From contig CP181398.1 of assembly GCA_047946875.1 (NCBI GenBank), positions 1,064,409 through 1,128,408 on the forward strand: a stretch of 64,000 nucleotides of DNA. The letters are read 5' to 3'. The DNA comes from Candidatus Kerfeldbacteria bacterium (lineage in GTDB: Bacteria > Patescibacteriota > Patescibacteriia > UBA10025 > JAHIVO01). The position numbers and the translations under genes were made by a program. How positions within the stretch are numbered: position 1 is the stretch's first letter; each line of letters opens with the position of its first letter. Under the pieces are notes generated by a model. That model saw only the letters and a list, made by a program, of their open reading frames with translations. It had not been told where the DNA came from and did not search any database. Below are positions 7,179 to 63,460 of this stretch, in pieces.

Positions 7179-8079
7179 TTCCAAAATACTTCAAAAAATA
7201 GGTCAAATTCTAATATATGTAGTTATATTTATTTTTATTGGGAAAATACTTTCAAATAATTGGTCAGACATTTCAGTATCTTTAAAATCAGCAAATTATT
7301 TATTACTACTATCAGGAATATTTCTAATAGTACTAATTTTATATTTACAAAGTTACATTTGGCATCTTCTACTTAAACAATCAAATAATACTCTAAAATT
7401 TTCTGCTTCATTTATTACCTATTTCAAATCAGTTATTACTAGATACCTTCCGGGTGGTATATGGGTATATTTTGCAAGAACATACCTTACGGGTAAACTA
7501 GGTTTTAAAAAAACCCAAATTATTTTTTTGATTCTTATTGAATCGCTTTTTGTAGTTGCCACTGGATCCATATCAATATTATTATTTCAGCCGCCTTCGG
7601 ATATATATATCATCATTGCAATTTTATCTATCATACTTACAATTACTGGATTTGTTTTTATTTTTTCACCTTCTTTTTTTATTAAGATTTATAAAACTTT
7701 CTACAACAAAATACTATCAATTATTCCCCTAAATAGGCAAACCATAGCTAAAGCAACTTCTCTATATTTTATTTTATGGATATTATCTGGATTATTTTTA
7801 TATATTATTATTAACGCTTTTACTCCACTCGGTGTAGATAACATTCCATCATTAATTGGTATTTATGCAATAAGCTGGGTAGTTGGATTCGTTGTATTTT
7901 TTATGCCCTCAGGGATTGGTGTTAGAGATGTTTTTTTGATTATTTTACTAAGCACTATTGTCAGTGTACCAATCGCCACATTAGTTGCATTGATAGCAAG
8001 AATAGTATTCTTGATAGGTGAGATAATTTGTTTTTTTATAAGCTTAATTATTGAAAAAAAACATCCCTTACCAAATTAG
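7165..8079 (+). CDS. Flippase-like membrane protein (UPF0104 / LPG-synthase-TM-like)
   Basis: About 8 TM helices and the motif YLPGGIWVYFARTYL, which matches the lPggiGe..R signature of this family as I recall it. This family is often found with glycosyltransferases. Confidence 0.5.
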   Translation: MMRTSSKILQKIGQILIYVVIFIFIGKILSNNWSDISVSLKSANYLLLLSGIFLIVLILYLQSYIWHLLLKQSNNTLKFSASFITYFKSVITRYLPGGIWVYFARTYLTGKLGFKKTQIIFLILIESLFVVATGSISILLFQPPSDIYIIIAILSIILTITGFVFIFSPSFFIKIYKTFYNKILSIIPLNRQTIAKATSLYFILWILSGLFLYIIINAFTPLGVDNIPSLIGIYAISWVVGFVVFFMPSGIGVRDVFLIILLSTIVSVPIATLVALIARIVFLIGEIICFFISLIIEKKHPLPN

Positions 8080-22963: not shown

Positions 22964-24186
22964 TGTACTGGGCAAATTTTTTTCATATCTACCAACCTCC
23001 TAACTGGTCACCACAAATAATAAAAAAAGTAACTAAAGAAAGCTATCGCCCCATTTTAACAATACTAAAAAAGAGTCCTAAGTTAAAAATAACTTTGAAT
23101 ATTTCTGGCTCTCTTACAGAACAATTAGCTCTACAAGGTTTTAATGACATAATTGATGATATTACAAATCTAGCTAAAAAAAAACAAATCGAATTTACAG
23201 GCAGCGCGCTCTATCATCCTATCCTACCTTTATTACCTACAAAAGAAATTATAAGACAGATTCAATTAAACACAGAAATAAACAAAAAATATTTTGGTAA
23301 AATATATAACCCAAAAGGATTTTTCTCTCCTGAAATGGCTTATAACAAAAAAATAGCTATTGTTATTCAGTCCCTCGGCTATAAATGGATAATCGTTGAT
23401 GAAATTTGTTACAACGGAGTATTAAATGCAAGTCAGCTCAACCAACGCTATCAAATAAAAGGTACTTCAGTAAATATAGTATTTAGAAACAGAGCCATTA
23501 GTGATTATTTTTCTTTTCATGGAAATCCAAAAAAACCACAAGAATTTTGGGATACTGTTGAGAAAGATGGTAGATATAATCCAGCTATCATAACTGCAAT
23601 GGACGGAGAAAATTTAGGTCATCATAGAAAAGGTTGGGATATCTACTGGAAAAAATTAGCTACAGACAAAAAAATACACACCCTTACCATAAATTCTTTG
23701 TTAAAAAAATATAAATCCAAAAAAATTATTACTCCAGTAAATGCTAGTTGGTCATCACAGGATCGAGAATTAAAAAACAAACATCCATATATATTATGGG
23801 ATGATCCGAAAAATCAAATACATTCTCTTCAATGGAATCTTATTCATTACACATCAAAGCTCCTCCATCAAAAAACCAAACACTCAAATTATACAAAAGC
23901 AAGAAAACTTTTTGATAAACGATTAGCCTCTGATCAATTTTGGTGGGCTTCTGCAAAACCATGGTGGAGCCTGAGAATAATTAAGAAAAAAACAAAAGAA
24001 CTTCAAGAAGTTATATTACTTGTAGACAAAAATAATAAAGAAGGAATTAATATTTCAAAGAAAATAATTAAACTTGCTACTAAATGGCAATCAACTAATA
24101 AATTTAAAACAATCGCTGATAAATATTTATTAGATAATCAAAATGATAATACAAGATTCATAGGCGGTAATAAAATTACTAACTAA
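22963..24186 (+). CDS. Glycoside hydrolase family 57 protein (alpha-glucan processing)
   Basis: MYWANFFHIYQPP…GSALYHPILPLLP…AMDGENLGHH: GH57 catalytic-domain pattern. Tandem paralog of the next gene. Confidence 0.7.
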   Translation: MYWANFFHIYQPPNWSPQIIKKVTKESYRPILTILKKSPKLKITLNISGSLTEQLALQGFNDIIDDITNLAKKKQIEFTGSALYHPILPLLPTKEIIRQIQLNTEINKKYFGKIYNPKGFFSPEMAYNKKIAIVIQSLGYKWIIVDEICYNGVLNASQLNQRYQIKGTSVNIVFRNRAISDYFSFHGNPKKPQEFWDTVEKDGRYNPAIITAMDGENLGHHRKGWDIYWKKLATDKKIHTLTINSLLKKYKSKKIITPVNASWSSQDRELKNKHPYILWDDPKNQIHSLQWNLIHYTSKLLHQKTKHSNYTKARKLFDKRLASDQFWWASAKPWWSLRIIKKKTKELQEVILLVDKNNKEGINISKKIIKLATKWQSTNKFKTIADKYLLDNQNDNTRFIGGNKITN

Positions 24187-24197
24187 AATTATAAATT

Positions 24198-25577
24198 ATG
24201 TACTGGGCAAATTTTCTTCATATTTACCAACCACCTACCCAAAAAGAATATTGGGTAAAAAAAATTGCTAACGAAAGTTATCGTAAAATAATTAAGGGCA
24301 TGGAGAAAGATCCAAACAGTAAGGCCACCTTAAATATCAATGCTGTTCTTACTGAGCTATTTGTTAAATTTGATTGCAAGGATGTAATACAAGGAATTAA
24401 AAAATTAGCAGAAAAAGGACAAATTGAGTTAACGGCCAGCGCTAAATACCATCCTTTTCTACCCTTAATGCCAGAGAAAGAAATAATCAGACAAATTGAA
24501 CTCAACACAATCACTAACAAAAAATACTTTGGTGATGCTTTTAATCCTAAAGGTTTTTTTCCACCAGAAATGGCTTATAATCGAAAAGTAGGAGAAATAG
24601 TTGCTAAAGCTGGCTACAAATGGTTAATTCTTGACGAGTTGGCCCACTCAGGGGAAACCAAAACAATCAATTGGTCAAAAACCTACAACTTAGAAGGTTT
24701 TGATGATTTCTATATATTCTTCCGAGAAAGAGAAGCAAGTTTTAGAATCCTATCAGCGGAAATTGGAATGAGTGTTTTTTCTAGTGACATGCTAATTAAA
24801 CTACTTGGTGACCGAGTAGACAAAAATGAATATCTAATTACTGCCATGGATGGTGAAACATTTGGTCATCATCGTCCTGGTTTAGAAGAACTATTATTTG
24901 ACTTATTTAAAACTGACAAATTACAACCGGTACATGTTTCCGACCTGATTGATTTATTCAAAAATAAAGAAAGTGTTGAGCCAAGAGATTCTTCCTGGGC
25001 CTTGATGAAAAAAGATATTGAACAAAATACTCCCTTTTCACGTTGGCAAGATAAAAATAATGAAATTCATAATATGCAATGGGAATTAACTGATCTTGCC
25101 TTAAGAAGCATAAAAAGCACTGATAAAAATACTAAAGATTTTAACAAAGTAAGAGCTGCTCTAGACCAAGCAATCCATTCAGATCAATACTGGTGGGCAT
25201 CTGCTATGCCATGGTGGAGCATTGAAATGATTGAAGCAGGTGCAAGAGATTTACAAAACGTAGTTCTCCAATCTTCATTGCCACAATCAGATAAAGATAG
25301 AGCTGAAGATTTATATAAAAATATTATCTATACTGCTTTTGACTGGCAACGTTCAGGTAAAGTAGATGAGCTGGCAAAATCAGCAGACGAAGACGTTACT
25401 CAACGTATAACCACAGAGATGCCTTTTATTCCCGTAGCTGAATTTAATAAAATGGTTAAGAATCTAGAAAACCAAATGTTAGAAGCAGCCAAGGCAAGAG
25501 AATATGAAAGGGCGGCTCAATTGAGAAATAGGGTTATCGAATTAAATGAAAAAAAAGATCAAATAACAAAAAAATAA
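24198..25577 (+). CDS. GH57 protein fused to a C-terminal UVR (UvrB/UvrC-type) motif
   Basis: N-terminal MYWANFLHIYQPP…AMDGETFGHH. The C-terminal end REYERAAQLRNRVIELNEKK matches the UVR consensus (..E.AA.lRd.i..L). Confidence 0.7.
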   Translation: MYWANFLHIYQPPTQKEYWVKKIANESYRKIIKGMEKDPNSKATLNINAVLTELFVKFDCKDVIQGIKKLAEKGQIELTASAKYHPFLPLMPEKEIIRQIELNTITNKKYFGDAFNPKGFFPPEMAYNRKVGEIVAKAGYKWLILDELAHSGETKTINWSKTYNLEGFDDFYIFFREREASFRILSAEIGMSVFSSDMLIKLLGDRVDKNEYLITAMDGETFGHHRPGLEELLFDLFKTDKLQPVHVSDLIDLFKNKESVEPRDSSWALMKKDIEQNTPFSRWQDKNNEIHNMQWELTDLALRSIKSTDKNTKDFNKVRAALDQAIHSDQYWWASAMPWWSIEMIEAGARDLQNVVLQSSLPQSDKDRAEDLYKNIIYTAFDWQRSGKVDELAKSADEDVTQRITTEMPFIPVAEFNKMVKNLENQMLEAAKAREYERAAQLRNRVIELNEKKDQITKK

Positions 25578-25580
25578 ACT

Positions 25581-26567
25581 ATGTTAGCAAAAAGTAAAGA
25601 TGATGCAAAAAACCACCGAGCTTATGCACGTAAAATAATAAAAGAAATTACCAATGAAAGAAGTTTTGTAACAACAGAGCGTATTAGATTTGGTCCCCGA
25701 TATTTTGTAGCTAAAGGAAATTATCAAAAATACACCTCCTTATTTAAAATCGCTTTATACCCTAAATCATACGATCACTTAACTAATGAAAAATTCTCCC
25801 GTGAAATATTATTTTTAAATATCATTCAGAATTCAAAATTTAAAAATTTAAAAAAATCAATTCCTCATATTTACGACTCAAGTATTAAAACAAGAGCGTG
25901 GTATTTTCGTGAATATCTAACTGGCAAAGTTCAAAATATTAATGGTGGTAATATCAGATTTAAAGATTCATTCTTTACAACCGCTCATCTTAATTGGTTT
26001 ATAAACGCATTTTCAGAACTTCAAAATATTACCCTTAAAGACTTACCATTACAATTTAAAAAACTATTATATCCCCACCAAACACTCGAATACCTTTGGC
26101 GTTTCATTAGTCCGGACTATAAAACTTTGGAAAAATTTATTGGTATCCCTGGGTCAACGAAAGATATTCATAATATATTCTTGAAAAACAGCAAGATATA
26201 CAAAAATGCTCCAAAAGTTTTAGCCCACCAAGAAGTATATTCACCCCATATTATAAACATAAATGGCCAATTAAAAATGATTGATTGGGAAAATATTGGC
26301 TGGGCCACTCCAACTAATGATATAGTTGCTATGTGGATGAGAGCACATAACCATCCAAATTGGCAGAAAAAACTTAAAAAAAGTTTTCAGAATAAATACA
26401 AAAAATATAAACAATTTGATCAACTTTGGGATATTACTGTCTTGGTTCAATCAGTCTATAATGTAATAAGTTACCACCACTACTTTGACAAAAAAGACTT
26501 TGAAGCGCTGGCAATATTCTCAGGTAAGATGGTCAAACAAATTTTAAAAAAATCACAAAACAAATAA
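25581..26567 (+). CDS. Protein-kinase-like (APH/ChoK fold) protein with substituted catalytic motif
   Basis: LAHQEVYSPHIININGQLKMIDWENIGWATPTND aligns to the APH HGDxxxxN…IDWE motif, but reads HQE…H (Asp to Glu, Asn to His). Confidence 0.5.
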   Translation: MLAKSKDDAKNHRAYARKIIKEITNERSFVTTERIRFGPRYFVAKGNYQKYTSLFKIALYPKSYDHLTNEKFSREILFLNIIQNSKFKNLKKSIPHIYDSSIKTRAWYFREYLTGKVQNINGGNIRFKDSFFTTAHLNWFINAFSELQNITLKDLPLQFKKLLYPHQTLEYLWRFISPDYKTLEKFIGIPGSTKDIHNIFLKNSKIYKNAPKVLAHQEVYSPHIININGQLKMIDWENIGWATPTNDIVAMWMRAHNHPNWQKKLKKSFQNKYKKYKQFDQLWDITVLVQSVYNVISYHHYFDKKDFEALAIFSGKMVKQILKKSQNK

Positions 26568-26573
26568 AATAAT

Positions 26574-27458
26574 ATGGAAAAAAATATTGATTTACATTTT
26601 CATTCAGTTTATTCCGAGGGAGATTACACCGTCCCAGAATTATTACAATTAGCCAAAGATAATAATATCCACGTCTTAGCTATGACTGATCATAATGTAA
26701 TAGCCGGTGTAGCCGAGCTAGTTAAACTTGCTCCAGACTATGGAATCAAAGCAATCCCTGGAGTGGAAATATATACACATTTTGAAAATGTCCCGCTACA
26801 TTTGCTCGGGTATAATTTTGATCCTGAAAATAAACAAATCAAAAAAATGATCCACGATCTTCAGACTGACAATGAAAAAAATATTAACAACTCTATCTCA
26901 AATTTACAGCAAGAGGGTTTTGTAATAGATGAAAAAAAATTATTCAAGTCAACCTCTCGTAATTTTGGAGCAATCCATATTCTCAAAGAGATGGAGCTTC
27001 ATCCAGAAAATATTAAAAAATTAGAAAAAGATTTAGGTAATAATTTTGATAATTTTTTTATAAAGATTGAAAAATACTTTGGACAAGGTCGCCCAGGCTA
27101 TATGCCTTTATCCGAGATACCTACTGATCAAGCAATTAAAATTATACAAGCTGGTAGTGGTTTTTCCTCCCTAGCTCATCCTGGACAACAATTAACCTAT
27201 GAACAAGATAATTTAATTTTGAATTTAGTTTCTAAGGGGCTAGATGCTATTGAAGTCCTCTCCCCTTATCACAACTGGCACCAAATAGAACATTACCAAA
27301 AAGTTGCAGATAAAAACAATTTACTAATTACTGGCGGGAGTGATTTTCATGGAGATATAGATTTCAAAAAACAAGAACTTATTCAGAGACAATGGGATTA
27401 TTTCCATGTGCCTTATAAAATTTTTGAACAATTAAATAATAAAATTACTAACTTATAA
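26574..27458 (+). CDS. PHP-domain metal-dependent phosphoesterase
   Basis: DLHFHSVYSEGDYT…LAMTDHNVIAG N-terminal His motifs. C-terminal GGSDFHG. Confidence 0.8.
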   Translation: MEKNIDLHFHSVYSEGDYTVPELLQLAKDNNIHVLAMTDHNVIAGVAELVKLAPDYGIKAIPGVEIYTHFENVPLHLLGYNFDPENKQIKKMIHDLQTDNEKNINNSISNLQQEGFVIDEKKLFKSTSRNFGAIHILKEMELHPENIKKLEKDLGNNFDNFFIKIEKYFGQGRPGYMPLSEIPTDQAIKIIQAGSGFSSLAHPGQQLTYEQDNLILNLVSKGLDAIEVLSPYHNWHQIEHYQKVADKNNLLITGGSDFHGDIDFKKQELIQRQWDYFHVPYKIFEQLNNKITNL

Positions 27459-27463
27459 AAAAT

Positions 27464-28933
27464 ATGAAACCTTTAAAAGTACTTTTGATAGCTTCTGAAC
27501 TTAACCCTATAGCCAAGGTTGGCGGTCTGGCTGACGTGATTGGAGCTTTACCCAAGGCATTGGCTAAATTGGGTGTAGACGTAAGAATCGCTATTCCAAA
27601 ATATGGTGTGATTGACGAAAAAGAATATCCAGTTACAGAACTAGCCAAAAATGTAACAGTTCCTTTTGAAGGTGAGGATAAACTAATGAATATTTTTTCT
27701 ACTCCTCTACCAGATACTAAGGTGCCTGTTTATTTATTAGACAATCTTGAGTACTTAGGACAAAACGGAATTTATTTTGAAACTGATGCATCCTCTAGTG
27801 GTTCAAATAGAGAGGCTGAAAGATATTCATTTTTTGCTCGATCTGTCATGGAAATCTTCGAGCCATTAGATTGGTATCCAGACGTTATTCATTGTCATGA
27901 TTGGCATGTTGGTTTTGTCCCAGTAATATTAAAAATATTAAGCAAAAAAAACAACAAACTTGCTCATATTAAATCACTACTAACTATCCATAATTTAGAA
28001 TATCAAGGACGATATGATGAACAGATGATTTTCAATGCTTTTGGTATTAAAAAATCTGACCATGAAACGTTGTCAGAAAACCAAAATGGACAAATTAATA
28101 GTTTACAACAAGCAATTTTAACTAGTGACCACCTTAATACTGTTAGTCCAAATTATGCTAAAGAAATATTAACCAAAAAATATGGTGCAGGTCTAGAAAG
28201 TACTTTAGATGTAAGAAAAAATGATTTAGAAGGAGTGATTAATGGAATAGATGTGGATAGATTTAATCCTGAAACAGATAAATCTTTAATCGCCAATTAT
28301 TCTGTTGACGACCTATCTGGACAGGCTAAATGTAAAGAAGATTTACAAAAAAAATGTGATCTTAAAGTTGATCCAAAAATTCCTATTTTAGGTATTGTCT
28401 CTCGTCTAGCCGACCAAAAGGGTATAGATCTAATTTATGATATTGCTGATAAAATTGCAAAAGAAGATGTTCAGTTTGTCTGCTTAGGAACTGGCGATCC
28501 AAAACTAGAAGCAATGATGAGTGAAATTGCAAAGAAATATCCTGAGAAATTCTATACCCAAATTGCTTTTGATGCGGCCTTTGCACAATTAATCTATGCT
28601 GGATCTGATATGTTCCTTATGCCATCAAAATTTGAGCCTTGTGGCTTAGGCCAAATGATTTCTATGCGTTATGGTACAGCACCTATTGTTCGATATACTG
28701 GTGGATTAGCAGATACTGTAGAAAACTATGACGCAAAAAATGATACTGGTGATGGTTTTGTATTTAATGACTATGATGCTGATCAATTCTTTGAAGCTAT
28801 AAAAAATTCATTAGATCTTTATCAAGATCAAAAGAAATGGTACAATTTAATCAAACGAATAATGAAGAAAGATTTCTCCTGGACTGCCTCAGCTAATAAA
28901 TACATTGAGCTATATAAAAAAATAATTGATTAA
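27464..28933 (+). CDS. glgA: Glycogen/starch synthase (GT5), second copy
   Basis: KVGGLADV motif; KFEPCGLGQ…RYTGGLADTV. Confidence 0.9.
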   Translation: MKPLKVLLIASELNPIAKVGGLADVIGALPKALAKLGVDVRIAIPKYGVIDEKEYPVTELAKNVTVPFEGEDKLMNIFSTPLPDTKVPVYLLDNLEYLGQNGIYFETDASSSGSNREAERYSFFARSVMEIFEPLDWYPDVIHCHDWHVGFVPVILKILSKKNNKLAHIKSLLTIHNLEYQGRYDEQMIFNAFGIKKSDHETLSENQNGQINSLQQAILTSDHLNTVSPNYAKEILTKKYGAGLESTLDVRKNDLEGVINGIDVDRFNPETDKSLIANYSVDDLSGQAKCKEDLQKKCDLKVDPKIPILGIVSRLADQKGIDLIYDIADKIAKEDVQFVCLGTGDPKLEAMMSEIAKKYPEKFYTQIAFDAAFAQLIYAGSDMFLMPSKFEPCGLGQMISMRYGTAPIVRYTGGLADTVENYDAKNDTGDGFVFNDYDADQFFEAIKNSLDLYQDQKKWYNLIKRIMKKDFSWTASANKYIELYKKIID

Positions 28934-42844: not shown

Positions 42845-43945
42845 TTATTGTTTAATCGGCATGATTATATAAACGTAGTCTTTTTTATTTTTTGGTCTTA
42901 ATAAACCAGGATTTGTATTTGTATTAATTTCTAATATACACTCTTCATCTTCAATATTTTGTAAACCTTCTAATAAAAAACGATAGTTAAAAATAATATT
43001 ATTTTCTATACCTTCTAATTTAACTTCTTGTTTCGCTTCACTTTCTCCAATTTGCATATTATTTGCAGAAATTGTAATTTCACTATTTTCAATTAAAAAT
43101 TGTATTAGTATGTCATTACTCCCTGTTTTGCAAAACAAACTAGCCCTTTTAACTGTTTTAATTAAATCACCTGTATTAACTATTGCCAAGGTTTTATGTT
43201 CTTTTGGGATAATTTGTTTATAGTCTGGATATTTTCCTTCTATCAAACGAGATGATAGTTTTGCACCAGCAATAGAAAATACTACTTGATTATCATTTAT
43301 CTTAATTTGTAACATTTCATCTTCATCTCCAATTATTCTTACTAACTCTTGAATTGTTTTAATTGGGACAATAAAATTCTGTTCTTTAACTTCTTTATTT
43401 AAGGATATTTCTTTTTCGGCTAACCTATAACTATCAGTGGCGGCAAGAACTAAAGAATTGTTAATAAAATTAAAAAATACTCCATTTATTTCAGGTCTTG
43501 TCTCGTCAAAAGAAACAGCAAAAAAGACTGAATTTAGGGCATTTTTTAAGATTTTTCCGTCTATTTCAATATTTTCTTCTGATTCAACTTGTGGTATTAA
43601 TGGAAATTCTGATGCTTCCATACCCTTCATTGAAGTTTTTGAATTACTACTTTTTATTTTTAAATTTTGTTCTTCAAGCTCTATTTCAATATTTTCTTTT
43701 GGTAATAAATTAATATAATCACTTAAAGTTTTTGCTTGGACAGTAAAAGATCCTTCTCTTTCTACTTTTCCTCTCACCTGACAAATAATCCCCATCTCTA
43801 AATTTGTGGTCATTAATTTTAAAATTCCATTTTCTGTTTTTAATAAAACATTACTAAGAATTGGTAAAGAAATATTTTTACTTGCAATATGACTTACTAG
43901 TTGTAATCCTTTAGATAAGTTTTCTTGTGTACAAGTTATCTTCAT
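42845..43945 (-). CDS. dnaN: DNA polymerase III beta sliding clamp
   Basis: MKITCTQENLSKGLQLVSHIASKNISLPILSNVLL… Three-domain length. Lies downstream of dnaA. Confidence 0.9.
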   Translation of the reverse strand: MKITCTQENLSKGLQLVSHIASKNISLPILSNVLLKTENGILKLMTTNLEMGIICQVRGKVEREGSFTVQAKTLSDYINLLPKENIEIELEEQNLKIKSSNSKTSMKGMEASEFPLIPQVESEENIEIDGKILKNALNSVFFAVSFDETRPEINGVFFNFINNSLVLAATDSYRLAEKEISLNKEVKEQNFIVPIKTIQELVRIIGDEDEMLQIKINDNQVVFSIAGAKLSSRLIEGKYPDYKQIIPKEHKTLAIVNTGDLIKTVKRASLFCKTGSNDILIQFLIENSEITISANNMQIGESEAKQEVKLEGIENNIIFNYRFLLEGLQNIEDEECILEINTNTNPGLLRPKNKKDYVYIIMPIKQ

Positions 43946-44198: not shown

Positions 44199-45575
44199 TT
44201 ATTTATTGTATAGACGTTGTCTGATTAGATTAATATCTTGTCTAATTTTTTCATCTTTATCTAAACATTTTTTTATTTTTTCATAAGCATGCATAGCGGT
44301 TGTATGGTCACGTCCACCTAATTCTTGTCCAATTGTTGGGTAAGAACATTTAATCTCTTCTCTTAATAAAAACATTGCTATCTGTCTAGGAATAACGAGT
44401 TCTTTTTTACGACTACTACCTAGTAAATCATCTTTTGGTTTATCAAAAAAAGAAGCAACCATATTAATAATTTGTTTTGTTGTAATTGCGCTGTCACGAT
44501 GTTTGTAGCTGGATACACTGCTAAGAATATTTTTAACAGATTCAACGCTAGGAGCTGTATTGTTAAGCTGATGAAAGGCAATTATTCTATTTAAAGCCCC
44601 TTCTAGTTCACGAACATTACTTTGTATATTATTAGCAATAACAGCAATTATATCAGCATTAAGCTGGTGGTCTTTCTCTTTACATTTTGCGTTTAATATT
44701 GCAATTCTTGTCTCATAGTCAGGTAAATTAACGTCTGCAATCATTCCCCACTCAAAACGAGAAATAAGCCTATTTTCAAGTGCAGGAATTGCTTTTGGCG
44801 GACGATCAGAACTAATTACTATTTGTTTATTTTGTTGATGTAGGGCATTAAAAGTATGAAAAAACTCTTCTTGTGTTCCCTCTTTTCCTGCCAAGAATTG
44901 AATATCATCAATAAGTAATAAATCGGCAGTCCGGTAGGTGTTTTTAAATTGTTCGGTACTACCCTGACTAATGGATTTAATAAAATCATTAGTGAATTTT
45001 TCGCATGTTACAAAAATTACTTTTTTGTCAGGGCTCTTTTCTGTTATACTGTGGGCAATTGCTTGTAGTAGGTGAGTTTTTCCTAGTCCAGATCCTCCAT
45101 ATATAAATAATGGATTATAAACCTCTCCAGGGCGCTCTGCTACGGCTAGACAGGCGGCGTGAGCAAGTTCATTTCCCTTACCTACAATAAAACTTTTAAA
45201 AGTATTTGAATTATTAAAACCCGAGCCGTTTTTTACAGCATTAGTAGAAGAATTAGTGTTAGAAGAATCTAAAACAACTTCAGTTTTTGTAACCGGGGTT
45301 TTTGATTCTTCTTTTTGTTTGTTTGAATTAGTTTCTACTTGGTATGTAGCTTCGGATATTTTATTATTAGTTGCATTTTGTAGCGATTGTAATATCTCTT
45401 TATGATATTTATTTTCTAACCAGGTTTTTGTAAAAGCATTTGGTACACCAATAACAATTTTATTATTTTCAAGTGATGAAATAAAAGTATTTTTAAACCA
45501 TGTGGTGAAATTTGCCTTACTTAGAGAGAGCTCTAATTCACCCAAGGCGGCTTGCCAGAGTTGTTCTTTATTCAT
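44199..45575 (-). CDS. dnaA: Chromosomal replication initiator DnaA
   Basis: GGSGLGKTHLLQAIAH (Walker A), LLIDDIQFL, C-terminal DNA-binding …GRDHTTAMHAYEKI. Confidence 0.95.
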   Translation of the reverse strand: MNKEQLWQAALGELELSLSKANFTTWFKNTFISSLENNKIVIGVPNAFTKTWLENKYHKEILQSLQNATNNKISEATYQVETNSNKQKEESKTPVTKTEVVLDSSNTNSSTNAVKNGSGFNNSNTFKSFIVGKGNELAHAACLAVAERPGEVYNPLFIYGGSGLGKTHLLQAIAHSITEKSPDKKVIFVTCEKFTNDFIKSISQGSTEQFKNTYRTADLLLIDDIQFLAGKEGTQEEFFHTFNALHQQNKQIVISSDRPPKAIPALENRLISRFEWGMIADVNLPDYETRIAILNAKCKEKDHQLNADIIAVIANNIQSNVRELEGALNRIIAFHQLNNTAPSVESVKNILSSVSSYKHRDSAITTKQIINMVASFFDKPKDDLLGSSRKKELVIPRQIAMFLLREEIKCSYPTIGQELGGRDHTTAMHAYEKIKKCLDKDEKIRQDINLIRQRLYNK

Positions 45576-51172: not shown

Positions 51173-53695
51173 TTATATTAGTTTTTTTAATTTTTCCTGT
51201 TGTTCTTTGAGTTTTTCTCTTTCTTTTTCAATAATATTATTTGGTGCATGGGCAACAAAATTTTTATTAGAAAGTTTATTTTCAATTGTTTGGATATATT
51301 TTGATATATTTTGGATTTCTTTGTTTATTACAGACTCGTCTTGTTCATAGTTAATATAATAATCAAGGCCAGGTAGAGTTCCTGTTGTGTCTGTACTTTT
51401 TTTATTTATAATGGATTTAATTTTACTTAATTTTTGTATAATAACTAGATTTTTATCTATGGTTTTAGATTTTTTACCCCAATAAAATACATTAAGTTTA
51501 GTTTTTGGGGAGATATTATTTTCTGCTAAAAAATTTCTTAGATTAGTGATAAATTTTTTAGTAAATTCAAATTCTGTTTCTGCTGAATTATTTATTAAAG
51601 TTTTGTCTTGTTGTGGCCAGTCTTGGATAATTAACATTTGTTCTTTTTTTGTACCAATCCAACGTGACCATATCTCTTCAGTAATAAAAGGAATAAAAGG
51701 ATGGGATAATTTTAGAATATTTTCTAATACATAATATAAAAGTGGGATATTTTTTTCTTCTTTTGAAATTTCTATATACCAATCAGCAAAGTCAGACCAC
51801 AAAAAATCATAAATTTTTGTACCTGCTTCAGAAAATTTCATATCTTCTAAATTTGTTGTTGTTTCTTTAATTAACCACTGAAGTTTACTTAGAATCCATT
51901 GATCAGAAATGGATACAGGTTTAACTTTTGTCTTTTTAGGGTATGGATTGGTGAATATGTATCTTGAAACATTCCAAAGTTTATTAATATAATTTCGGAA
52001 ACCCGCAATTTTTTCTTCAAAAATTCTAAAGTCTTGACCCACAGAAGTACCTAATGTTAAGGACAATCTGATAGCATCAGTCCCGTATTTTTTAGTCATT
52101 GGGATCGGATCAATACCAGTACCTTTTGATTTAGACATTTTTTTACCATCTTTGTCTAAAACAAGTCCGTGTAGGTATACTTTTTCGAATGGAATTTCTT
52201 TTGTAAAATATAAGCTCATCATTACCATCCTAGCAATCCAAAAAAATAGAATATCCCAACCAGTCTCCATTACCGAAGTTGGGTGAAAAGTTTTTAAATC
52301 TTTAGTTTTTTTAGGCCATCCTAATGTAGAAAAAGTCCAAAGGCCAGAAGAGAACCAAGTATCTAATGTATCAGTATCTTGTACCCAGCCTTTGCCGGAC
52401 GGTTTTGTAACGGAAGCTTTTACTTTATCACCATTATACCAGATTGGTATTGGGTGTCCCCACCATAATTGGCGAGAAATACACCAATCTTTAATATTTT
52501 CCATCCAGTAAAAATATACTTTCTCTTCACGTTTTGGATATATTTTTATCTTTCCATTTTTAACAACCTCAATTGCCTTTTTTGCTAGTGGTTTTGTTTT
52601 GATAAACCATTGTTTTGATATCAGGGGTTCGATTGGTGCTTTACACCTTTCACAACGAGAAACATTGTGTTCGTATATTTTAGTTTTGATTAATAACCCC
52701 TCTGCTTCTAATAATTCTAAAATATCATGTCTAGCTTGTTGGACACTAAGACCATAAAAAACTCCAGCCTCTTTAGTCATTTTGTTGTCTTGTCCAATTA
52801 CATTAATAATTTTAAGTTTATGTTTTTCTCCTAATTCATAATCGAAATGATCATGAGCAGGAGTAACTTTAACAGCGCCAGTTCCGAATTTCATATCTAC
52901 TTGTTTGTCTGTGATAATAGGAATTTCACGATTTGTGATAGGTAAAATTATCTTTTGGCCGAGGTATTTTTTGTATCTCTTGTCGTCTGGATTTACGGCT
53001 ACAGCAGTATCCCCCAACATAGTTTCTGGCCTAGTAGTTGCAACAGTTATATATTTTGTACTACCCGCTAATGGATAGCGCAAATACCAAAGTTTACCAG
53101 TAGTAGCCTGATGTATTACTTCTAAGTCTGAGAGGGCAGATGAACATCTAGGACACCAATTAATAATTCTATCACCATGGTATATCAGTCCGTCGTTATA
53201 CATTTTGATAAAGGCAGTTTGGACAGCGACAGTCATTGTTTCGTCCATTGTGAAATGTTCGCGTGACCAATCACATGAAGTGCCAAGTTGTCTTATTTGT
53301 TTAGTAATACGACTACCATATTGTTTTTTCCAAGCCCATACTTTTTTTACAAACTTATCTCTTCCTAACGTATGACGATCAAGACCACTTTTTTTAATTA
53401 GTTTTTCTACCATTACTTGCGTACCGATACCAGCATGATCAGTGCCAGGAATATATAAAACTTTTTCTCCTTGCATACGATGATATCGAGCCATAATATC
53501 TTCCATGGTCATTCCGGTTGCATGCCCTAAGTGGAGTTCTCCTGTAACGTTTGGTGGGGGCATAGCAATACTAAAAGATTTGGTTCTTTTACCTGGTAGA
53601 TTATCTGGATTAAAATACCCTGATTTTTCCCATTTGGAATAAATTTGTGATTCAACGTTATTTGGTTGGTATGCTTTGGATAATTCTTCGGTCAT
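51173..53695 (-). CDS. valS: Valyl-tRNA synthetase
   Basis: PNVTGELHLGHA (HIGH) and KMSKSKG. C-terminal coiled coil. Confidence 0.95.
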   Translation of the reverse strand: MTEELSKAYQPNNVESQIYSKWEKSGYFNPDNLPGKRTKSFSIAMPPPNVTGELHLGHATGMTMEDIMARYHRMQGEKVLYIPGTDHAGIGTQVMVEKLIKKSGLDRHTLGRDKFVKKVWAWKKQYGSRITKQIRQLGTSCDWSREHFTMDETMTVAVQTAFIKMYNDGLIYHGDRIINWCPRCSSALSDLEVIHQATTGKLWYLRYPLAGSTKYITVATTRPETMLGDTAVAVNPDDKRYKKYLGQKIILPITNREIPIITDKQVDMKFGTGAVKVTPAHDHFDYELGEKHKLKIINVIGQDNKMTKEAGVFYGLSVQQARHDILELLEAEGLLIKTKIYEHNVSRCERCKAPIEPLISKQWFIKTKPLAKKAIEVVKNGKIKIYPKREEKVYFYWMENIKDWCISRQLWWGHPIPIWYNGDKVKASVTKPSGKGWVQDTDTLDTWFSSGLWTFSTLGWPKKTKDLKTFHPTSVMETGWDILFFWIARMVMMSLYFTKEIPFEKVYLHGLVLDKDGKKMSKSKGTGIDPIPMTKKYGTDAIRLSLTLGTSVGQDFRIFEEKIAGFRNYINKLWNVSRYIFTNPYPKKTKVKPVSISDQWILSKLQWLIKETTTNLEDMKFSEAGTKIYDFLWSDFADWYIEISKEEKNIPLLYYVLENILKLSHPFIPFITEEIWSRWIGTKKEQMLIIQDWPQQDKTLINNSAETEFEFTKKFITNLRNFLAENNISPKTKLNVFYWGKKSKTIDKNLVIIQKLSKIKSIINKKSTDTTGTLPGLDYYINYEQDESVINKEIQNISKYIQTIENKLSNKNFVAHAPNNIIEKEREKLKEQQEKLKKLI

Positions 53696-53783
53696 AAAAA
53701 TATAGTTGACTAAATCTCAAAAAAGAGTTAATTTGCAGTAATATTGTACCATTTGTTCATTTATATTAGAAGAGAGGAAAAGA

Positions 53784-54224
53784 ATGATAAAAGAGTTTAA
53801 AGATAGTTTTGCACAAAATCAACCTATCTCATGGCCTTTGTATATATTTTTTGGCTATATATTATTGCCTATGGCTTGTTCTCTGAGTTTAATGTTAATG
53901 TTGCGACTATTCGGCAACATGCGATTTAATCAGTTTAGTTGGGATATGGTATTATGTAGCGTAATAGGATCAACTATAGGTATATGTATTTCATCAATTA
54001 TTTTGCTAGATAAAAGAAGAAAAGCAAATAAAGAGACGATTATATCTATATTGAGTGATTTGAATATTGAATGTAGCAAGAAATACAAATTTTGGTTTGA
54101 ATGTCCTGCCTGTGGTAAGGTTTGGGATCCTGATATTGCCCCGGCAAATAATTTATGCCCAATAGATTTTATTCCTTTAAAAAAGATTGACCCAGTAGAA
54201 AGGGATCAGTTCGAAGATTTATAA
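53784..54224 (+). CDS. Hypothetical membrane protein with C-terminal Cys pair (ECPACG…CP)
   Basis: Two TM segments. No family recognised. Confidence 0.4.
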   Translation: MIKEFKDSFAQNQPISWPLYIFFGYILLPMACSLSLMLMLRLFGNMRFNQFSWDMVLCSVIGSTIGICISSIILLDKRRKANKETIISILSDLNIECSKKYKFWFECPACGKVWDPDIAPANNLCPIDFIPLKKIDPVERDQFEDL

Positions 54225-54246
54225 GTCTTGTTACAATATGTAATAG

Positions 54247-54498
54247 GGCTTTTTATTTTACTAATTCCCAATTTGGATCAGCATCGAGTTTTTTCCAATC
54301 AGAAAAATCTTTTTGTTTTGCATGGTGATATCCAGCGATGGCAATCATCGTGGCATTATCAGTACAAAGCTTGAGAGGAGGATAGTGATACTTAGTATTA
54401 GGGAGTTCTTTGGTGACAGCTTGTCCTAGTTGTTCTCGTAGAGGTTTGTTTGCCGCTACACCACCAGCCAGGAGGACTGTTTTAATTTTAAGTTTTTT
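54247..54498 (-). pseudogene. Orphan duplicate of the 3' end (last ~75 codons plus stop) of tsaD; left arm of a perfect ~250-bp direct repeat
   Basis: 54251-54497 is base-for-base identical to 55768-56014 as far as I can read. That stretch is the C-terminus of tsaD, …PLKLCTDNATMIAIAGYHHAKQKDFSDWKKLDADPNWELVK*. Confidence 0.8.
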
Positions 54499-54690
54499 TT
54501 CTGTTTTGCGATGTCTGAAATTTTTCTTTGACTATTTTTTTGTATTCATAAATTATAGTATACTGAAAAAATACACTAAGAACATGTTATTGAGGTTTTA
54601 TTGGATTTTAAGTATATGGTAGACTTAATAATATTAACGCAAATATATTTAGTATAAAATATATATTTATTGCAAAGTAAAAGAAAAAGT

Positions 54691-55713
54691 ATGAACGATT
54701 TATCAAAAATAAATATTGATTATAAAACTACCCGCAATACTTCAAATAAGCCAATATTTCATACGGCGTCTTTAGATGATACTCTAACAAAATTTTCGTA
54801 TGAAGCTAAATTATTAAAAAATGGTCAAAACGAACTAGATGATTTTATTAAAAATGGGGGGCTTGAAAATTTCAAAAGAATATTTATTATTATTAAAAAA
54901 ATTCTTAAATTATCACCTTTAAGATTAGGTGTATATTTAGTTAATAGACATGCTTTAAAAAATGTATATATAGACGCTTTAAAATTAATCCAAGAAGTAT
55001 TAGAAGTATTAAGTATTAAATTACAAAATAATAAAATTAGGATAGTAAATAATTCTTGGAATTATCGGGAGGTAAAGAAAATGATTAGTTTTGGAGAATA
55101 TGTTGCATGGTATCTCCAGGCACTTGATAATATGTATACAATAGAGATGTTATCAAGTTATTATTATTCAATAGTTGGTAAGAATAGTAATGTTACTTCA
55201 AGATTTTTTAATTTATTTTTTCGATTTCCTGAAAAGATAATTAGAAAATTGTTTGGTATGAGTTATATAGCACATAGATCAGAATCACGATTTGAAAAAA
55301 AATTTAGACTGGTAACAGGAAGAGCTAATAAATTATTATTTAAATCATTATCTAATAGAATAAATGAAGAAGAAATATTACTAAATTTTAAGAAGCATGT
55401 TCAAAGATTAAAAGTTAAAAATGAGATTATTCAATTTACTTTGGAAAAACCATGGAGAGCTAGAAGAATGCTATCAAGGGGATTTGCAATAATTTCTGTT
55501 TCTATTGCTTTGGTACAACAATTTATATATAAAGGAGATTTTATTGTTTTAATGGAAATATTATTTTCAGGATTGGCAATTGTGTTAGTGATAAATTGGG
55601 TACCATATTTTATTAAAGTGGGGGTTGATAAGTTTGCCTATAAAAATCTCAAGTCAATAAATCATTCGAGAAAAAAAATTGAATTATATTTTACTATTAA
55701 AAAGAAATTCTAA
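54691..55713 (+). CDS. Hypothetical AT-rich protein with C-terminal two-helix membrane module; cargo of the insert between the tsaD repeats
   Basis: ATG 54691 (MNDLSKINIDYK). About 250 aa of soluble, Lys/Asn-rich N-domain. C-terminal GFAIISVSIALVQQFIY and FIVLMEILFSGLAIVLVINWVPYFI helices. No homolog recognised. Confidence 0.55.
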   Translation: MNDLSKINIDYKTTRNTSNKPIFHTASLDDTLTKFSYEAKLLKNGQNELDDFIKNGGLENFKRIFIIIKKILKLSPLRLGVYLVNRHALKNVYIDALKLIQEVLEVLSIKLQNNKIRIVNNSWNYREVKKMISFGEYVAWYLQALDNMYTIEMLSSYYYSIVGKNSNVTSRFFNLFFRFPEKIIRKLFGMSYIAHRSESRFEKKFRLVTGRANKLLFKSLSNRINEEEILLNFKKHVQRLKVKNEIIQFTLEKPWRARRMLSRGFAIISVSIALVQQFIYKGDFIVLMEILFSGLAIVLVINWVPYFIKVGVDKFAYKNLKSINHSRKKIELYFTIKKKF

Positions 55714-55760
55714 AAACAAACCAAAACATTCGTTTTCCCTTCCGTTATGGTATATAAAGG

Positions 55761-56014
55761 GGGCGTTTTTATTTTACTAATTCCCAATTTGGATCAGCAT
55801 CGAGTTTTTTCCAATCAGAAAAATCTTTTTGTTTTGCATGGTGATATCCAGCGATGGCAATCATCGTGGCATTATCAGTACAAAGCTTGAGAGGAGGATA
55901 GTGATACTTAGTATTAGGGAGTTCTTTGGTGACAGCTTGTCCTAGTTGTTCTCGTAGAGGTTTGTTTGCCGCTACACCACCAGCCAGGAGGACTGTTTTA
56001 ATTTTAAGTTTTTT
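55761..56014. repeat. Right arm of the ~250-bp direct repeat (within intact tsaD 3' end)
   Basis: See the 54247..54498 feature. Identity starts at the tsaD stop codon region and ends about 82 codons upstream of the stop. Confidence 0.8.
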
Positions 56015-56791
56015 AGCAGCTTTGATAGTTTTTTTGACTAAGACGTCGACGGCAGCTTGTTGAAAGCTAGCAGCTATATTATCGACGGGGACGTTTTTAT
56101 TGTTAAATTGTTTTTTAACAAGATAAAGAACGGAGGTTTTCAGACCAGAAAAGCTAAAATCAAAATTATTTTGGTTTATCATTGGGCGCGGAAATTTATA
56201 ACTATAGGGATCACCCTTTTTAGCTATTTTTTGAATCATTGGACCGCCCGGATAGCCAAGTTCTAATAATTTTGCTACTTTATCAAAAGCTTCTCCAACC
56301 GCATCATCACGAGTTTGACCGATTAACTTATAATTATTATGTTTCTTTATTTCAATTAATTCTGTGTGACCTCCAGAGACAACTAAGCAAAGTGCTGGTA
56401 ATCTTAAATTTGGATTTTCATACCAATTAGCATAGATATGTCCTTCCATATGATTTAATCCTACAATTTTTTTGTTCCAGGTAACACTTAATGTTTTTGC
56501 AGTCTGTACTCCAACTCGAAGTGAGGTAATTAACCCAGGCCCTTTAGTTACCGTAATATTAGAAATATCTTTTGGTGTTATTTTTGCTTTTGTAAGAGCA
56601 GTTTCTAAGACGGGAATAATATTAACTACATGTTCTCTTGCGGCTACTTCTGGAACTACTCCGCCATATTTTTTATGAGTTTTGATCTGTGATGCTACAA
56701 CGTGTGACAGAATTTCAAAACGACCAGCCGTGGCCTTGACCACACTGATAGCTGTTTCATCACAAGAAGATTCAATTCCTAGAATTATCAT
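55769..56791 (-). CDS. tsaD: tRNA N6-adenosine threonylcarbamoyltransferase TsaD (Kae1/Gcp family)
   Basis: MIILGIESSCDETAISVV…. The metal-binding HxEGH region reads NHMEGHIY. Confidence 0.9.
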   Translation of the reverse strand: MIILGIESSCDETAISVVKATAGRFEILSHVVASQIKTHKKYGGVVPEVAAREHVVNIIPVLETALTKAKITPKDISNITVTKGPGLITSLRVGVQTAKTLSVTWNKKIVGLNHMEGHIYANWYENPNLRLPALCLVVSGGHTELIEIKKHNNYKLIGQTRDDAVGEAFDKVAKLLELGYPGGPMIQKIAKKGDPYSYKFPRPMINQNNFDFSFSGLKTSVLYLVKKQFNNKNVPVDNIAASFQQAAVDVLVKKTIKAAKKLKIKTVLLAGGVAANKPLREQLGQAVTKELPNTKYHYPPLKLCTDNATMIAIAGYHHAKQKDFSDWKKLDADPNWELVK

Positions 56792-56880
56792 ATTATTATT
56801 GTAACATAAAAGGGGCTTTTTTTATTTACTATTGACTCTCACCTATTAGCTTAATTCTACTCGTTCAAATCCTTTAGCTC

Positions 56881-56908
56881 AAAAAAGCTTATATATAGTT
56901 ATAAGCTT
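56881..56908 (-). terminator. Hairpin terminator downstream of tRNA-Glu (minus strand)
   Basis: AGCTTATA-loop-TATAAGCT, then T6 on the minus strand. Confidence 0.5.
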
Positions 56909-56929
56909 ATTTAGGTAATAAAAATGGAT

Positions 56930-57006
56930 TGGTAGCGCCAAGGGGATTCGAACCCCTGTTACCACATTGAAAGCGTGGTGTCCTGACCAAGCTAGACGAT
57001 GGCGCC
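56930..57006 (-). tRNA. tRNA-Glu (anticodon UUC), CCA encoded
   Basis: The reverse complement GGCGCCATCGTCTAGCTTGGTCAGGACACCACGCTTTCAATGTGGTAACAGGGGTTCGAATCCCCTTGGCGCTACCA folds as a cloverleaf. Anticodon loop CTTTCAA, T-loop TTCGAAT. Near-colinear with E. coli tRNA-Glu. Confidence 0.9.
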
Positions 57007-57017
57007 TTATATATTTA
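56994..57017. repeat. Left direct repeat AGACGATGGCGCCTTAT(atattta), covering the 5' end of the tRNA-Glu gene
   Basis: The 17-bp perfect core is repeated at 57313-57329, and about 20 of 21 bp match including the flank. Confidence 0.6.
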
Positions 57018-57312
57018 TTTACTCAATTAAGTTGTTTTAGTTGTTTACGAAGTAGCCCTGATTTTTTAATTTGTTGTTCCCTTTTACGAGTATCTGTTTT
57101 ATTCAAGAATTTTTCAATTTTAACTAATTTATAAGGTATATATGATTTTGATGAACTTACATTGCCATTATTATGCTCTTTGATTCTTCGATTAACATTA
57201 TTAGTACTCCCTATGTATAATCTACTATTTTTTATGCTTTTAAGAATATATACGTAATACATAATTATATTATTATCAAGCTTCCGGCATAGCCGGATCA
57301 GGCTCTGCCTGA
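57018..57312 (-). mobile_element. Mini-insertion carrying a GIY-YIG nuclease gene, bounded by ~20-bp direct repeats
   Basis: About 300 bp between the repeats. It contains only the 79-aa GIY-YIG ORF plus two short GC hairpins (CCGGC-ATA-GCCGG, TCAGGC-TCT-GCCTGA) in its 5' leader. Confidence 0.5.
57023..57262 (-). CDS. Small GIY-YIG-domain nuclease (UPF0213/YhbQ-like)
   Basis: YVYILKSIKNSRLYIGSTNNVNRRIKEHNNG matches GIY…YIG…R…E.H.G and is colinear with E. coli YhbQ ([30 protein letters not shown]). Confidence 0.8.
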   Translation of the reverse strand: MYYVYILKSIKNSRLYIGSTNNVNRRIKEHNNGNVSSSKSYIPYKLVKIEKFLNKTDTRKREQQIKKSGLLRKQLKQLN

Positions 57313-57336
57313 AGACGATGGCGCCTTATGTATATT
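57313..57336. repeat. Right direct repeat AGACGATGGCGCCTTAT(gtatatt)
   Basis: Partner of 56994..57017. Confidence 0.6.
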
Positions 57337-57375
57337 CTATGGGTTTAAAAAAATATTAACTTAAATTACATGATT

Positions 57376-57420
57376 AGTCAACCCCGCCCTGCTTAATGGG
57401 AGTGAGGTTAGCAGGCGGGG
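57376..57420. other. Isolated GC-rich stem-loop flanked by TCAACC direct repeats in the AT-rich hsp20 upstream region
   Basis: CCCCGCCCTGCT-16nt-AGCAGGCGGGG (11 bp, one bulge). GTCAACC lies immediately on both sides. Confidence 0.4.
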
Positions 57421-57491
57421 TCAACCATATTGTTTAAAAGCTATATTTATACTATAATAATTATACAAATAAATTTTATAAAAATATAATC

Positions 57492-57941
57492 ATGAGTAAA
57501 CAAATATCAACAAAAAATTCAAAAACAATCAGCAATAACTCAACAATAGACAAAGAAATTGATTTAAATAATCCTCAAAATGAGGAATGGATGGATGATG
57601 ATGATTTTTCTGGTCAGTTGGCAGTAGACGTTTATCAGACAAAAGATGACATAATAATTAAATCTACTATTGCTGGGGTAAGGACAGAAGATATTGATAT
57701 TGCAATTAATAATGATATGATCACTATTCGTGGGAAAAGAGAAAAAGAACACGAAATTATTGAAGATAATTATTTCTATCGGGAATGTTATTGGGGAGGT
57801 TTTTCCAGATCAATAATTCTTCCGGTGGATGTGAAATCTGACAAAGTAAAGGCAAATATGAAAAATGGTGTTCTTACAATATCTTTGCCTAAGGCAGATA
57901 AAGTTAACAAAGTGACTGTAGTCAAGGTTAAAGAGGAATAA
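57492..57941 (+). CDS. Hsp20/alpha-crystallin small heat-shock protein
   Basis: Alpha-crystallin domain …LAVDVYQTKDDIIIKSTIAGV…GVLTISLPKA. Confidence 0.9.
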   Translation: MSKQISTKNSKTISNNSTIDKEIDLNNPQNEEWMDDDDFSGQLAVDVYQTKDDIIIKSTIAGVRTEDIDIAINNDMITIRGKREKEHEIIEDNYFYRECYWGGFSRSIILPVDVKSDKVKANMKNGVLTISLPKADKVNKVTVVKVKEE

Positions 57942-57946
57942 TAAAT

Positions 57947-58180
57947 ATGTTTGAAGACGGGATGAGCTATGATCTCAACGTTACTATAAAAAAGTTTGAG
58001 GGGATTTTTGCATTGATTGAAACAGAAGATAATCAATTATTAAAATGGCCAATCAAAAATCTTCCCGACGATGTTAAAGAAGGCGCAAGTTTACGATTGG
58101 CAGTCTCTACTGAAAAAACTGATGAGGAGTCAAGAGAAAAATTAGCAAGAACAGTATTAAATAGTATTTTAGCAGGTTAA
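57947..58180 (+). CDS. Hypothetical small protein, co-oriented with the VanW gene
   Basis: ORF only. Confidence 0.4.
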   Translation: MFEDGMSYDLNVTIKKFEGIFALIETEDNQLLKWPIKNLPDDVKEGASLRLAVSTEKTDEESREKLARTVLNSILAG

Positions 58181-62440: not shown

Positions 62441-63460
62441 ATGACAGATCGAGTATTAAATAGTGAAGAGAAGGATGAGGATAGAGTTTTTGACAATACT
62501 TTAAGACCAAAAGGCATTAAGGAATTTATTGGACAGGATAAAGTAAAAGATAATCTTAATATTTTTATTGCAGCGGCAAAACAACGCAGTGAACCATTGG
62601 ATCACGTATTGTTACATGGACCACCAGGAATCGGCAAAACAACTTTGGCGCATATTGTTGGTGGAGAAATGGGATCAAGTGTTCGCGTTACATCTGGACC
62701 AGCTATAGAGAAGGCTGGTGATTTGGGAGCTATCCTTACTAATTTAGAAGATGGGGATATTTTATTTATTGATGAAATACATAGATTAAACAGAGTTATA
62801 GAGGAAGTACTTTATTCTGCTATGGAAGATTACGTTTTAGATATCGTTGTTGGTAAGGGACCTTCGGCCAGGACCTTAAGACTAGATTTACCAAAATTTA
62901 CTTTAGTTGGTGCTACGACCAAGGTTCATTTATTGTCTCCCCCTCTTCGTGATAGGTTTGGTAATGTTTTTAGATTGGACTTTTATAATGTAGATGATAT
63001 TGAGAAAATTATTAGTCGTTCAGCAGATATTTTAAACGTTGATATTCATCAAGAAGCTTTGCCAGAAATTGCCAAACGTTCTAGAAGAACCCCTAGGGTA
63101 GCAAATAGATTGTTAAAAAGAGTAAGAGATTATGCTCAGGTAAAAGCTGATGGAGCAATCATACCTAAGGTTGCTGTTGATGCTTTATCATCTTTAGATA
63201 TTGATCATTCTGGTTTGGATGAGATAGATCGTAAAATATTAACTACAATTATTGATAAATTTGGTGGTGGCCCCGTTGGCCTTAATACTATTGCAGCAGT
63301 TATTGCTGAAGATCAATCTACTATGGAAGATGTTTACGAACCATATTTGATGCAGTTAGGCTTATTAGCTCGTACTTCACGTGGTCGGGTAGTTACTGCT
63401 GATGGGTATAAACATATTGGTAGAGATATACCAGATGATTTACAGCAGAAATTAGTGTAA
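62441..63460 (+). CDS. ruvB: Holliday junction branch-migration helicase RuvB
   Basis: [19 protein letters not shown]…[25 protein letters not shown], sensor and arginine finger regions. Full length. Confidence 0.95.

Follow-up and report, generated by a model that had tools for sequence, protein, structure and literature searches.

How did a single orphan gene come to lie between two perfect copies of the end of an essential gene? This question is raised by the tsaD locus of contig CP181398.1, which was analysed here within a 64-kb window, the window being the whole stretch of 64,000 nucleotides under study. The window is part of a 1,309,938-bp contig, all coordinates given below are those of the window, and the searches of the source genome covered the window. 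Bacteria of the Patescibacteria, or candidate phyla radiation (CPR), have small genomes and few recognisable mobile elements, yet many lineage-specific orphan genes, and the tsaD locus presents such a gene caught in the middle of gain or loss, with both alleles on record, 100% identity of their flanks and no mobility gene attached. The insert proved to be a genuine, recent, strain-level and polymorphic gain, and in another metagenome the same strain was found to lack it. The locus is a tractable natural case for studying how orphan genes enter reduced genomes, be it by recombination after uptake, by a helper recombinase or by break repair, and it bears on the tolerance of insertions beside essential genes. 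In the following, A and B denote the flanks, R the 249-bp repeat and X the insert, so that the present allele is written A-R-X-R-B and the empty allele A-R-B.

The two copies of R stand in direct orientation with an offset of 1516 bp and agree at every position (0 mismatches), as obtained by both self-comparison and self-BLAST, and the latter revealed R as the sole long repeat within the 64-kb window. The preliminary description of this DNA, in which a perfect direct repeat of about 250 bp had been reported, was accurate on self-alignment, its coordinates being right within 1–2 nt. No third remnant of the tsaD end was detected in the window using a 22-nt sub-pattern of R, for which 0.01 matches are expected by chance. 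The right copy of R consists of tsaD codons 260–340, the stop codon and 3 nt beyond it. Owing to the stop codon within R, tsaD is kept intact, and the left copy, now displaced, is an inert orphan, which agrees with the earlier description of this copy as a mere fragment: the frame of the repeat begins there with KKLKIKT, an in-frame stop is located shortly upstream (about 8–12 codons), and no start codon yields a product of at least 50 aa. The G+C content is 38% for R and 24.4% for X, the value for the window being 31%.

The limits of R are sharp, because no significant similarity was detected beyond them. Residual homology past the outer limit was not significant (p = 0.14–0.47 for the outer flank), the inner flanks share only an 18-nt T-rich match, and an older, longer duplication of which R would be the preserved part was rejected on this basis. 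The joints are ambiguous by no more than 2–4 nt. Both limits abut T runs, which is the case for only 2.4% of positions, and the outer limit lies just past the tsaD stop codon.

The empty allele was identified by an exact-sequence lookup of the TsaD protein, which is encoded in identical form on a 4,433-bp metagenome contig of the Joint Genome Institute (JGI), designated L001 (sample 3300083231). In this contig, tsaD is followed directly by the gene for a 146-aa protein and then by valS. In the BLAST comparison with the window, both sides of L001 matched at 100% (0 differences over 4.4 kb outside the insert), and the two alignments overlap in a single copy of R, which is the structure of the empty site A-R-B. 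The protein encoded in X, referred to below as the cargo protein, is recorded from NCBI sources only, with no record from JGI, which speaks for a real absence of the insert from the L001 sample and against a repeat collapsed by the assembler. The intactness of tsaD together with the empty L001 allele at 100% flank identity bears out the earlier view of an insertion at the 3′ end of an essential gene that is provided with a replacement end, and shows the insertion to be recent.

The occupied allele is represented in further assemblies. The contig SWBY01010222.1 (L002; 1,361 bp) corresponds exactly to window positions 54452–55812, that is, to X flanked by 47 nt of R on either side, and two long contigs of the sister assembly SWBX, which match the window at 100%, end at 54296 and 55968, in each case 47 nt into R. 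Thus, the independent short-read assemblies SWBX and SWBY branch at both limits of R, and both new joints, R to X and X to R, are present in them. These data fit the integrated form, and they fit a free 1,516-bp circle accompanied by an empty chromosome equally well. In the latter case, the structure of the window would be due to mis-threading during assembly, X+R being a free 1.5-kb circle or a tandem multimer and the chromosome always having the form A-R-B. The breaks of the SWBX/SWBY contigs at both R limits with 47-nt overlaps, the X unitig of the kind that a circle would give, and the existence of the A-R-B contig L001 are all in line with such an artefact, which we nevertheless consider rather improbable: the contig of the window, annotated as a Candidatus Kerfeldbacteria metagenome-assembled genome, shows the integrated form with no Ns in the window, and its length suggests long reads or a curated closure spanning the 1.8 kb in question. 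In addition, X encodes no recognisable replication protein, and a free circle with 249 bp identical to the chromosome would integrate readily, so that the underlying biology would be nearly the same.

The direction of the change follows from a comparison with relatives. In L167, a closer relative found via the TsaD protein (TsaD 91%, about 84% nucleotide identity), tsaD and the homologue of the 146-aa gene are directly adjacent and convergent, and neither the insert nor a second tsaD end is present; therefore, the empty arrangement is the ancestral one, the insert having been gained in the present strain. While the arms of R show 0 differences over 249 bp, the same segment differs from that of L167 by ~16%, which means that the duplication is very young, far younger than the split from L167, or is being homogenised. 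A duplication that is ancient and fixed, its copies being kept the same by gene conversion, would likewise have perfectly identical arms, but the site is empty in the same strain (L001) as well as in the closest relative (L167), and no other relative carries the insert; this explanation, which the preliminary description had proposed to examine in related genomes, can be regarded as excluded. When about 170 tsaD loci from GTDB genomes, JGI metagenomes and the closer relatives were scanned for a second tsaD end, a single locus other than the window, L005, was positive, and there the duplication encloses other cargo.

The wider neighbourhood of tsaD has a conserved backbone among the relatives, HSP20-DUF3006 ... 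tsaD-valS-pilB-DHH, with both flanks of tsaD being variable. The gene valS follows tsaD directly in L004, L006, L008, L009, L083, L169 and L171. Between tsaD and valS, one to three small genes annotated without function, most of them convergent, are located in L077/L085, L007, L089/L172, L168, L005 and the window. Genes have been gained repeatedly in the tsaD-valS interval within this family.

Insert X, which was correctly described from the outset as carrying one AT-rich open reading frame (ORF), is foreign-looking (Table 1). Its lysine-rich product is an orphan in the strict sense: no match was obtained in Pfam, PHROGs or PADLOC, nor by tblastn in plasmid or phage collections, the protein matched itself alone among 5.8 billion (5.8e9) clusters, and a full HMMER search of 1.84 billion (1.84e9) representatives returned no homologue but itself. 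The single-sequence AlphaFold2 model of the cargo protein is all-helical and unreliable (predicted local distance difference test score, pLDDT, 43). A hydropathy plot indicates one strongly hydrophobic, membrane-type C-terminal segment at about residues 283–305, and one might guess that the cargo is a membrane-anchored accessory protein. A promoter-like site precedes the cargo ORF within X; note that such sites are no more numerous in the region than expected from shuffled sequences. No significant hairpin was found downstream of X (z 0.25), and the Rfam scan of positions 53000–58000 detected tRNA-Glu alone.

Table 1. Features of the tsaD locus and of the adjacent tRNA-Glu locus (window coordinates)
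Feature	Coordinates	Strand	Remarks
146-aa membrane/zinc-ribbon-like gene	53784..54224	+	native neighbour, convergent with tsaD; directly abuts tsaD in L001 and L167
Left copy of R	54250..54498	-	orphan, untranslated; last 246 nt of tsaD + 3 nt; adjoins the native downstream flank
Insert X	54499..55765	+	1,267 bp; absent from the empty-site allele L001
Promoter-like site TTGACT-17-AATTAT	54528..54556	+	upstream of the cargo ORF, in X; from a consensus scan alone
Cargo ORF, 340 aa	54691..55713	+	lysine-rich orphan; sole ORF of X
Right copy of R	55766..56014	-	functional tsaD 3′ end: 81 codons + stop + 3 nt
tsaD, intact, 340 aa	55769..56791	-	Pfam PF00814 TsaD, E=1.3e-98, full length
tRNA-Glu	56930-57006	-	Rfam scan
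Direct repeat, 21 nt	56994-57014 / 57313-57333		brackets the GIY-YIG gene; 20/21 match
GIY-YIG gene, 79 aa	57023-57262	-	Pfam; catalytic domain only; ~1.3 kb from the tsaD insert

How could this structure have been formed? With a probability of about one half, we favour the view that it is a recent strain-level insertion-duplication allele whose formation was independent of a dedicated recombinase, homologous recombination being sufficient. Formally, one reciprocal crossover within R between the chromosome A-R-B and a 1,516-bp circle composed of R and X would give A-R-X-R-B. Campbell-type single-crossover insertion-duplication of circular DNA carrying a chromosomal fragment is well known, for example, from integrating suicide plasmids, and its features are found here: identical repeats of 249 bp, a unit of 1,516 bp, both junctions, and both alleles with otherwise identical sequence. 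The tsaD locus has in common with such integrants the order fragment-insert-fragment, the identity of the repeats, reversibility by homologous recombination, the lack of a dedicated recombinase, and the preservation of the gene when the fragment includes its end. It differs from integrated suicide plasmids in being a natural allele of an uncultured CPR bacterium, with an insert that has neither a replicon nor a marker and with a circle that was not observed. This explanation by homologous recombination is favoured because R is identical to the strain's own gene over the whole of its length (249/249).

The insertion is probably reversible. RecA-type recombination acts efficiently on two perfect 249-bp repeats located 1.3 kb apart, and host homologous recombination between the R copies could delete X, yielding a circle and the empty site, in line with the empty allele on record, an outcome that had already been envisaged in the preliminary description and that these repeats would indeed permit. 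From the circle, X could re-enter the chromosome via host recombination, and the whole allele could spread between cells by recombination through flank homology after DNA uptake; that loss or gain proceeds by homologous recombination is our inference. Among the genes of the window are those of a PilB-type ATPase and of RuvB, the latter at 62441–63460 and belonging to the homologous-recombination machinery, and these genes may be linked to DNA uptake and recombination, respectively; recA is not within the 64-kb window.

Several observations weigh against formation by homologous recombination as outlined above. The circle of R and X was not seen, and this reading does not explain by what illegitimate event X first became joined to R. 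Both here and in the independent duplication of L005, the repeat has its outer limit just past the tsaD stop codon, and the location of both limits at T runs hints at a non-random, possibly enzyme-directed process. The recurrent gain of genes in the tsaD-valS interval and the dependence of the integrated form on one 1.31-Mb contig also count against it. Nor does homologous recombination explain the position of the outer limit of R relative to the terminator of the 146-aa gene: the terminator stem (54223–54251; dG -12.7, z -5.4) ends at the start of R, and the U tract is inside R, so that the limit falls between the two. The T-run limits, the gene-end limit, the position in the terminator and the X-R joining keep alive two rival explanations, one invoking an enzyme acting in trans and the other break repair.

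According to the former, X would belong to a site-specific element without an integrase of its own, mobilised in trans in the manner of a satellite or of a cis-mobilizable element (CIME), with the tsaD 3′ end as attB and X+R as cargo plus attP. Evidence for it comes from L005 (CAZJUO010000008.1, TsaD 66%), in which positions 6991–7960 contain a 31-nt direct repeat of the tsaD end around 937 bp. This repeat comprises the last eight tsaD codons, the stop codon and five As and recurs 937 bp downstream, the copy in the gene being GCAGATCCGAACTGGGAATTGGTATAAAAAA and the second copy GCTGATCCGAATTGGGAATTGGTATAAAAAA. The two arms have 2 synonymous differences in 12 nt and are identical in the remaining last 19 nt, each copy is followed by its own hairpin, and two small ORFs, convergent with tsaD and provided with strong Shine-Dalgarno sites, lie between the copies. 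One of these two ORFs was searched and is an orphan with no relatives, the L005 cargo has no family match, and no integrase was found nearby among the three ORFs examined within 13 kb. The tsaD locus of the window resembles L005 in the gene and the end of the gene affected, in the small orphan-gene insert convergent with tsaD, and in the lack of an integrase nearby; it differs in that the L005 repeat is 31 nt long with two synonymous differences, which is att-like, and encloses different cargo. The L005 repeat around two other orphan genes has the look of a classical attL/attR pair, and in both loci the repeat ends just past the stop codon and a run of As, which also speaks for a site-specific element. 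The interval downstream of tsaD, being a hot spot of small-gene gain, also suits such an element. A loose precedent is provided by Macrococcus prophages, which belong to a distant phylum and are integrated, in an intergenic position, between tsaD and an ABC-transporter gene (PMC6008420).

The same comparison supplies an argument for a host origin of R. The L005 copy differs at 2/12 positions, as expected for an incoming attP, and the 249/249 match found here accordingly favours R being host-derived. A perfect identity over 249 bp far exceeds any att core and is unexpected for an incoming element; Campbell-type recombination or a one-off duplication-insertion is simpler than an incoming attP, given this identity of R to the strain's own tsaD. 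At the same time, a duplication of any kind was found at just 2 of the about 20 loci with TsaD identity of at least 60%, and both X and the L005 cargo are singletons with no sign of a propagating family.

The search for mobility genes pointed in the same direction. X contains no recombinase, transposase or terminal inverted repeats, and no recombinase domain was detected among the called genes up to about 8 kb to each side of the insert, which encode TsaE, a DHH protein, the PilB-type ATPase, ValRS, HSP20, DUF3006, VanW, NIF3 and RuvB; a scan of 27 further ORFs of the window gave no integrase or recombinase either. The absence of an integrase that was noted originally thus holds for all of these genes, and for the part of L005 examined as well. 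No viral contig with the conserved tsaD end (tested as a degenerate ADPNWELV-coding sequence) or with a relative of X was found, and no other copy of the X element was present in any collection searched. The original proposal of site-specific insertion by a recombinase was not upheld, as no att-like core, cognate integrase, other copy of the element or viral contig with the tsaD end could be found, and a site-specific element mobilised in trans is, in our estimation, an unlikely source of the allele.

Elements that have the 3′ end of a gene as their integration site and restore the gene with an end of their own are exemplified by phage 21 and e14 in icd (about 165 nt), ICESt1 and the CIME at fda, SCCmec at rlmH, and the islands at guaA and tRNA genes. 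The present allele is similar to them in the direct repeat of the gene 3′ end, the intact gene, the orphan end adjoining the native flank, the empty site in relatives and the repeat ending at the gene end, and dissimilar in lacking an integrase and a defined core, in carrying a single orphan gene as cargo, in having a long repeat with zero differences from the host gene, and in that no related element could be found. CIMEs are integrase-less remnants mobilised in trans, and X is comparable to them as a small segment flanked in att fashion and devoid of recombination genes; unlike for CIMEs, no cognate integrase-bearing partner element was identified within the window.

Three further classes of elements were rejected. 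A transposon or insertion sequence does not fit, as there is no transposase, no inverted repeat is present at the ends of X, and the duplication is 249 bp rather than short. Target-primed reverse transcription, with a fixed limit at a T run and a variable second nick, was considered and dismissed given that X encodes no reverse transcriptase and the joints have no A tail. A template/variable repeat pair of a diversity-generating retroelement (DGR) is not compatible with identical arms and the lack of a reverse transcriptase.

The latter of the two rival explanations, capture during break repair, supposes a one-off illegitimate repair of a double-strand break or stalled fork at the tsaD end, in which foreign DNA was captured and 249 bp were re-synthesised, the allele being spread later by flank homology; a nuclease, for instance the neighbouring GIY-YIG protein, may have caused the break. 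This accords with the location of the R limits at T runs, with the joints being ambiguous by 2–4 nt at most, with the uniqueness of the cargo and with a second single-gene insertion that duplicates a gene end, located 1.3 kb away. There, a GIY-YIG gene is bracketed by a 21-nt direct repeat (Table 1), the proximal copy of which consists of the first 13 nt of tRNA-Glu and 8 nt upstream of it, while the distal copy is an orphan 5′ fragment of the tRNA behind the original tRNA promoter. The gene was inserted after nt 13 of tRNA-Glu and is accompanied by a replacement 5′ end. In L166 and L167, the ~319-nt segment is missing, and the promoter and tRNA-Glu are uninterrupted. GIY-YIG genes directly upstream of tRNA-Glu also occur in L004 (81% aa identity), L077 (52%) and L090. 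Against break repair, there is no direct evidence of a nuclease site, the 79-aa GIY-YIG protein has the catalytic domain only and is present in the empty-site allele too, and bacterial repair of this kind does not usually leave a duplication of 249 bp; on balance, we consider this course of events quite unlikely, and formation by homologous recombination is preferred to it.

Taken with the tsaD locus, the tRNA-Glu insertion indicates that single-gene insertions which rebuild the end of an essential gene are recurrent in this lineage. It is conceivable, albeit doubtful, that the Kerfeldbacteria-like Patescibacteria share an undescribed mechanism not based on an integrase, by which essential genes receive single orphan genes at their ends and a replacement end is built, with one limit fixed at the gene end and the other variable. 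The replacement ends that can be cited for it are those of the tsaD 3′ end, with 249 nt in the window and 31 nt in L005, and of the tRNA-Glu 5′ end, with 21–37 nt. If the tsaD and tRNA-Glu patterns do share a mechanism, this would be a new route of gene gain; otherwise, the tsaD allele is an ordinary unstable indel.

Some observations made in passing concern the same neighbourhoods. In L077 (2755–3175), the initial 37 nt of tRNA-Glu are repeated as an orphan upstream of a GIY-YIG gene of 85 aa; next to this orphan come a GC-rich, hairpin-like segment of 28 nt and 12 further tRNA-like bases, and the intact tRNA-Glu comes after the gene. The interval upstream of tsaD varies among relatives (L003-L009, L077, L083-L089, L166-L173), containing GIY-YIG/tRNA-Glu, GT87 or HD_4. 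In L169 (TsaD 74%), a DGR-like pair, bAvd and RVT_1, together with a 68-aa ORF, is located directly upstream of tsaD (3329–4908). In L003, a 70% relative, a perfect 135-nt inverted repeat (739–873 / 3045–3179, 2.2 kb apart) was found upstream of tsaD, as were perfect direct repeats of 65–76 nt spaced about 213–243 bp (3178–3638).

Elsewhere in the window, DnaN, the beta subunit of DNA polymerase III, is encoded on the minus strand at 42845–43945, about 10 kb from the insert, and is adjoined by a 458-aa ORF (44199–45575); if this ORF is dnaA, the locus would be near the replication origin. Finally, diverged paralogous segments with about 73% nucleotide identity over about 190 bp occur among neighbouring genes at 22597–28777, the genes concerned being 22963–24186 (GH57), 24198–25577 and 27464–28933, of which the first two have a similar start region.

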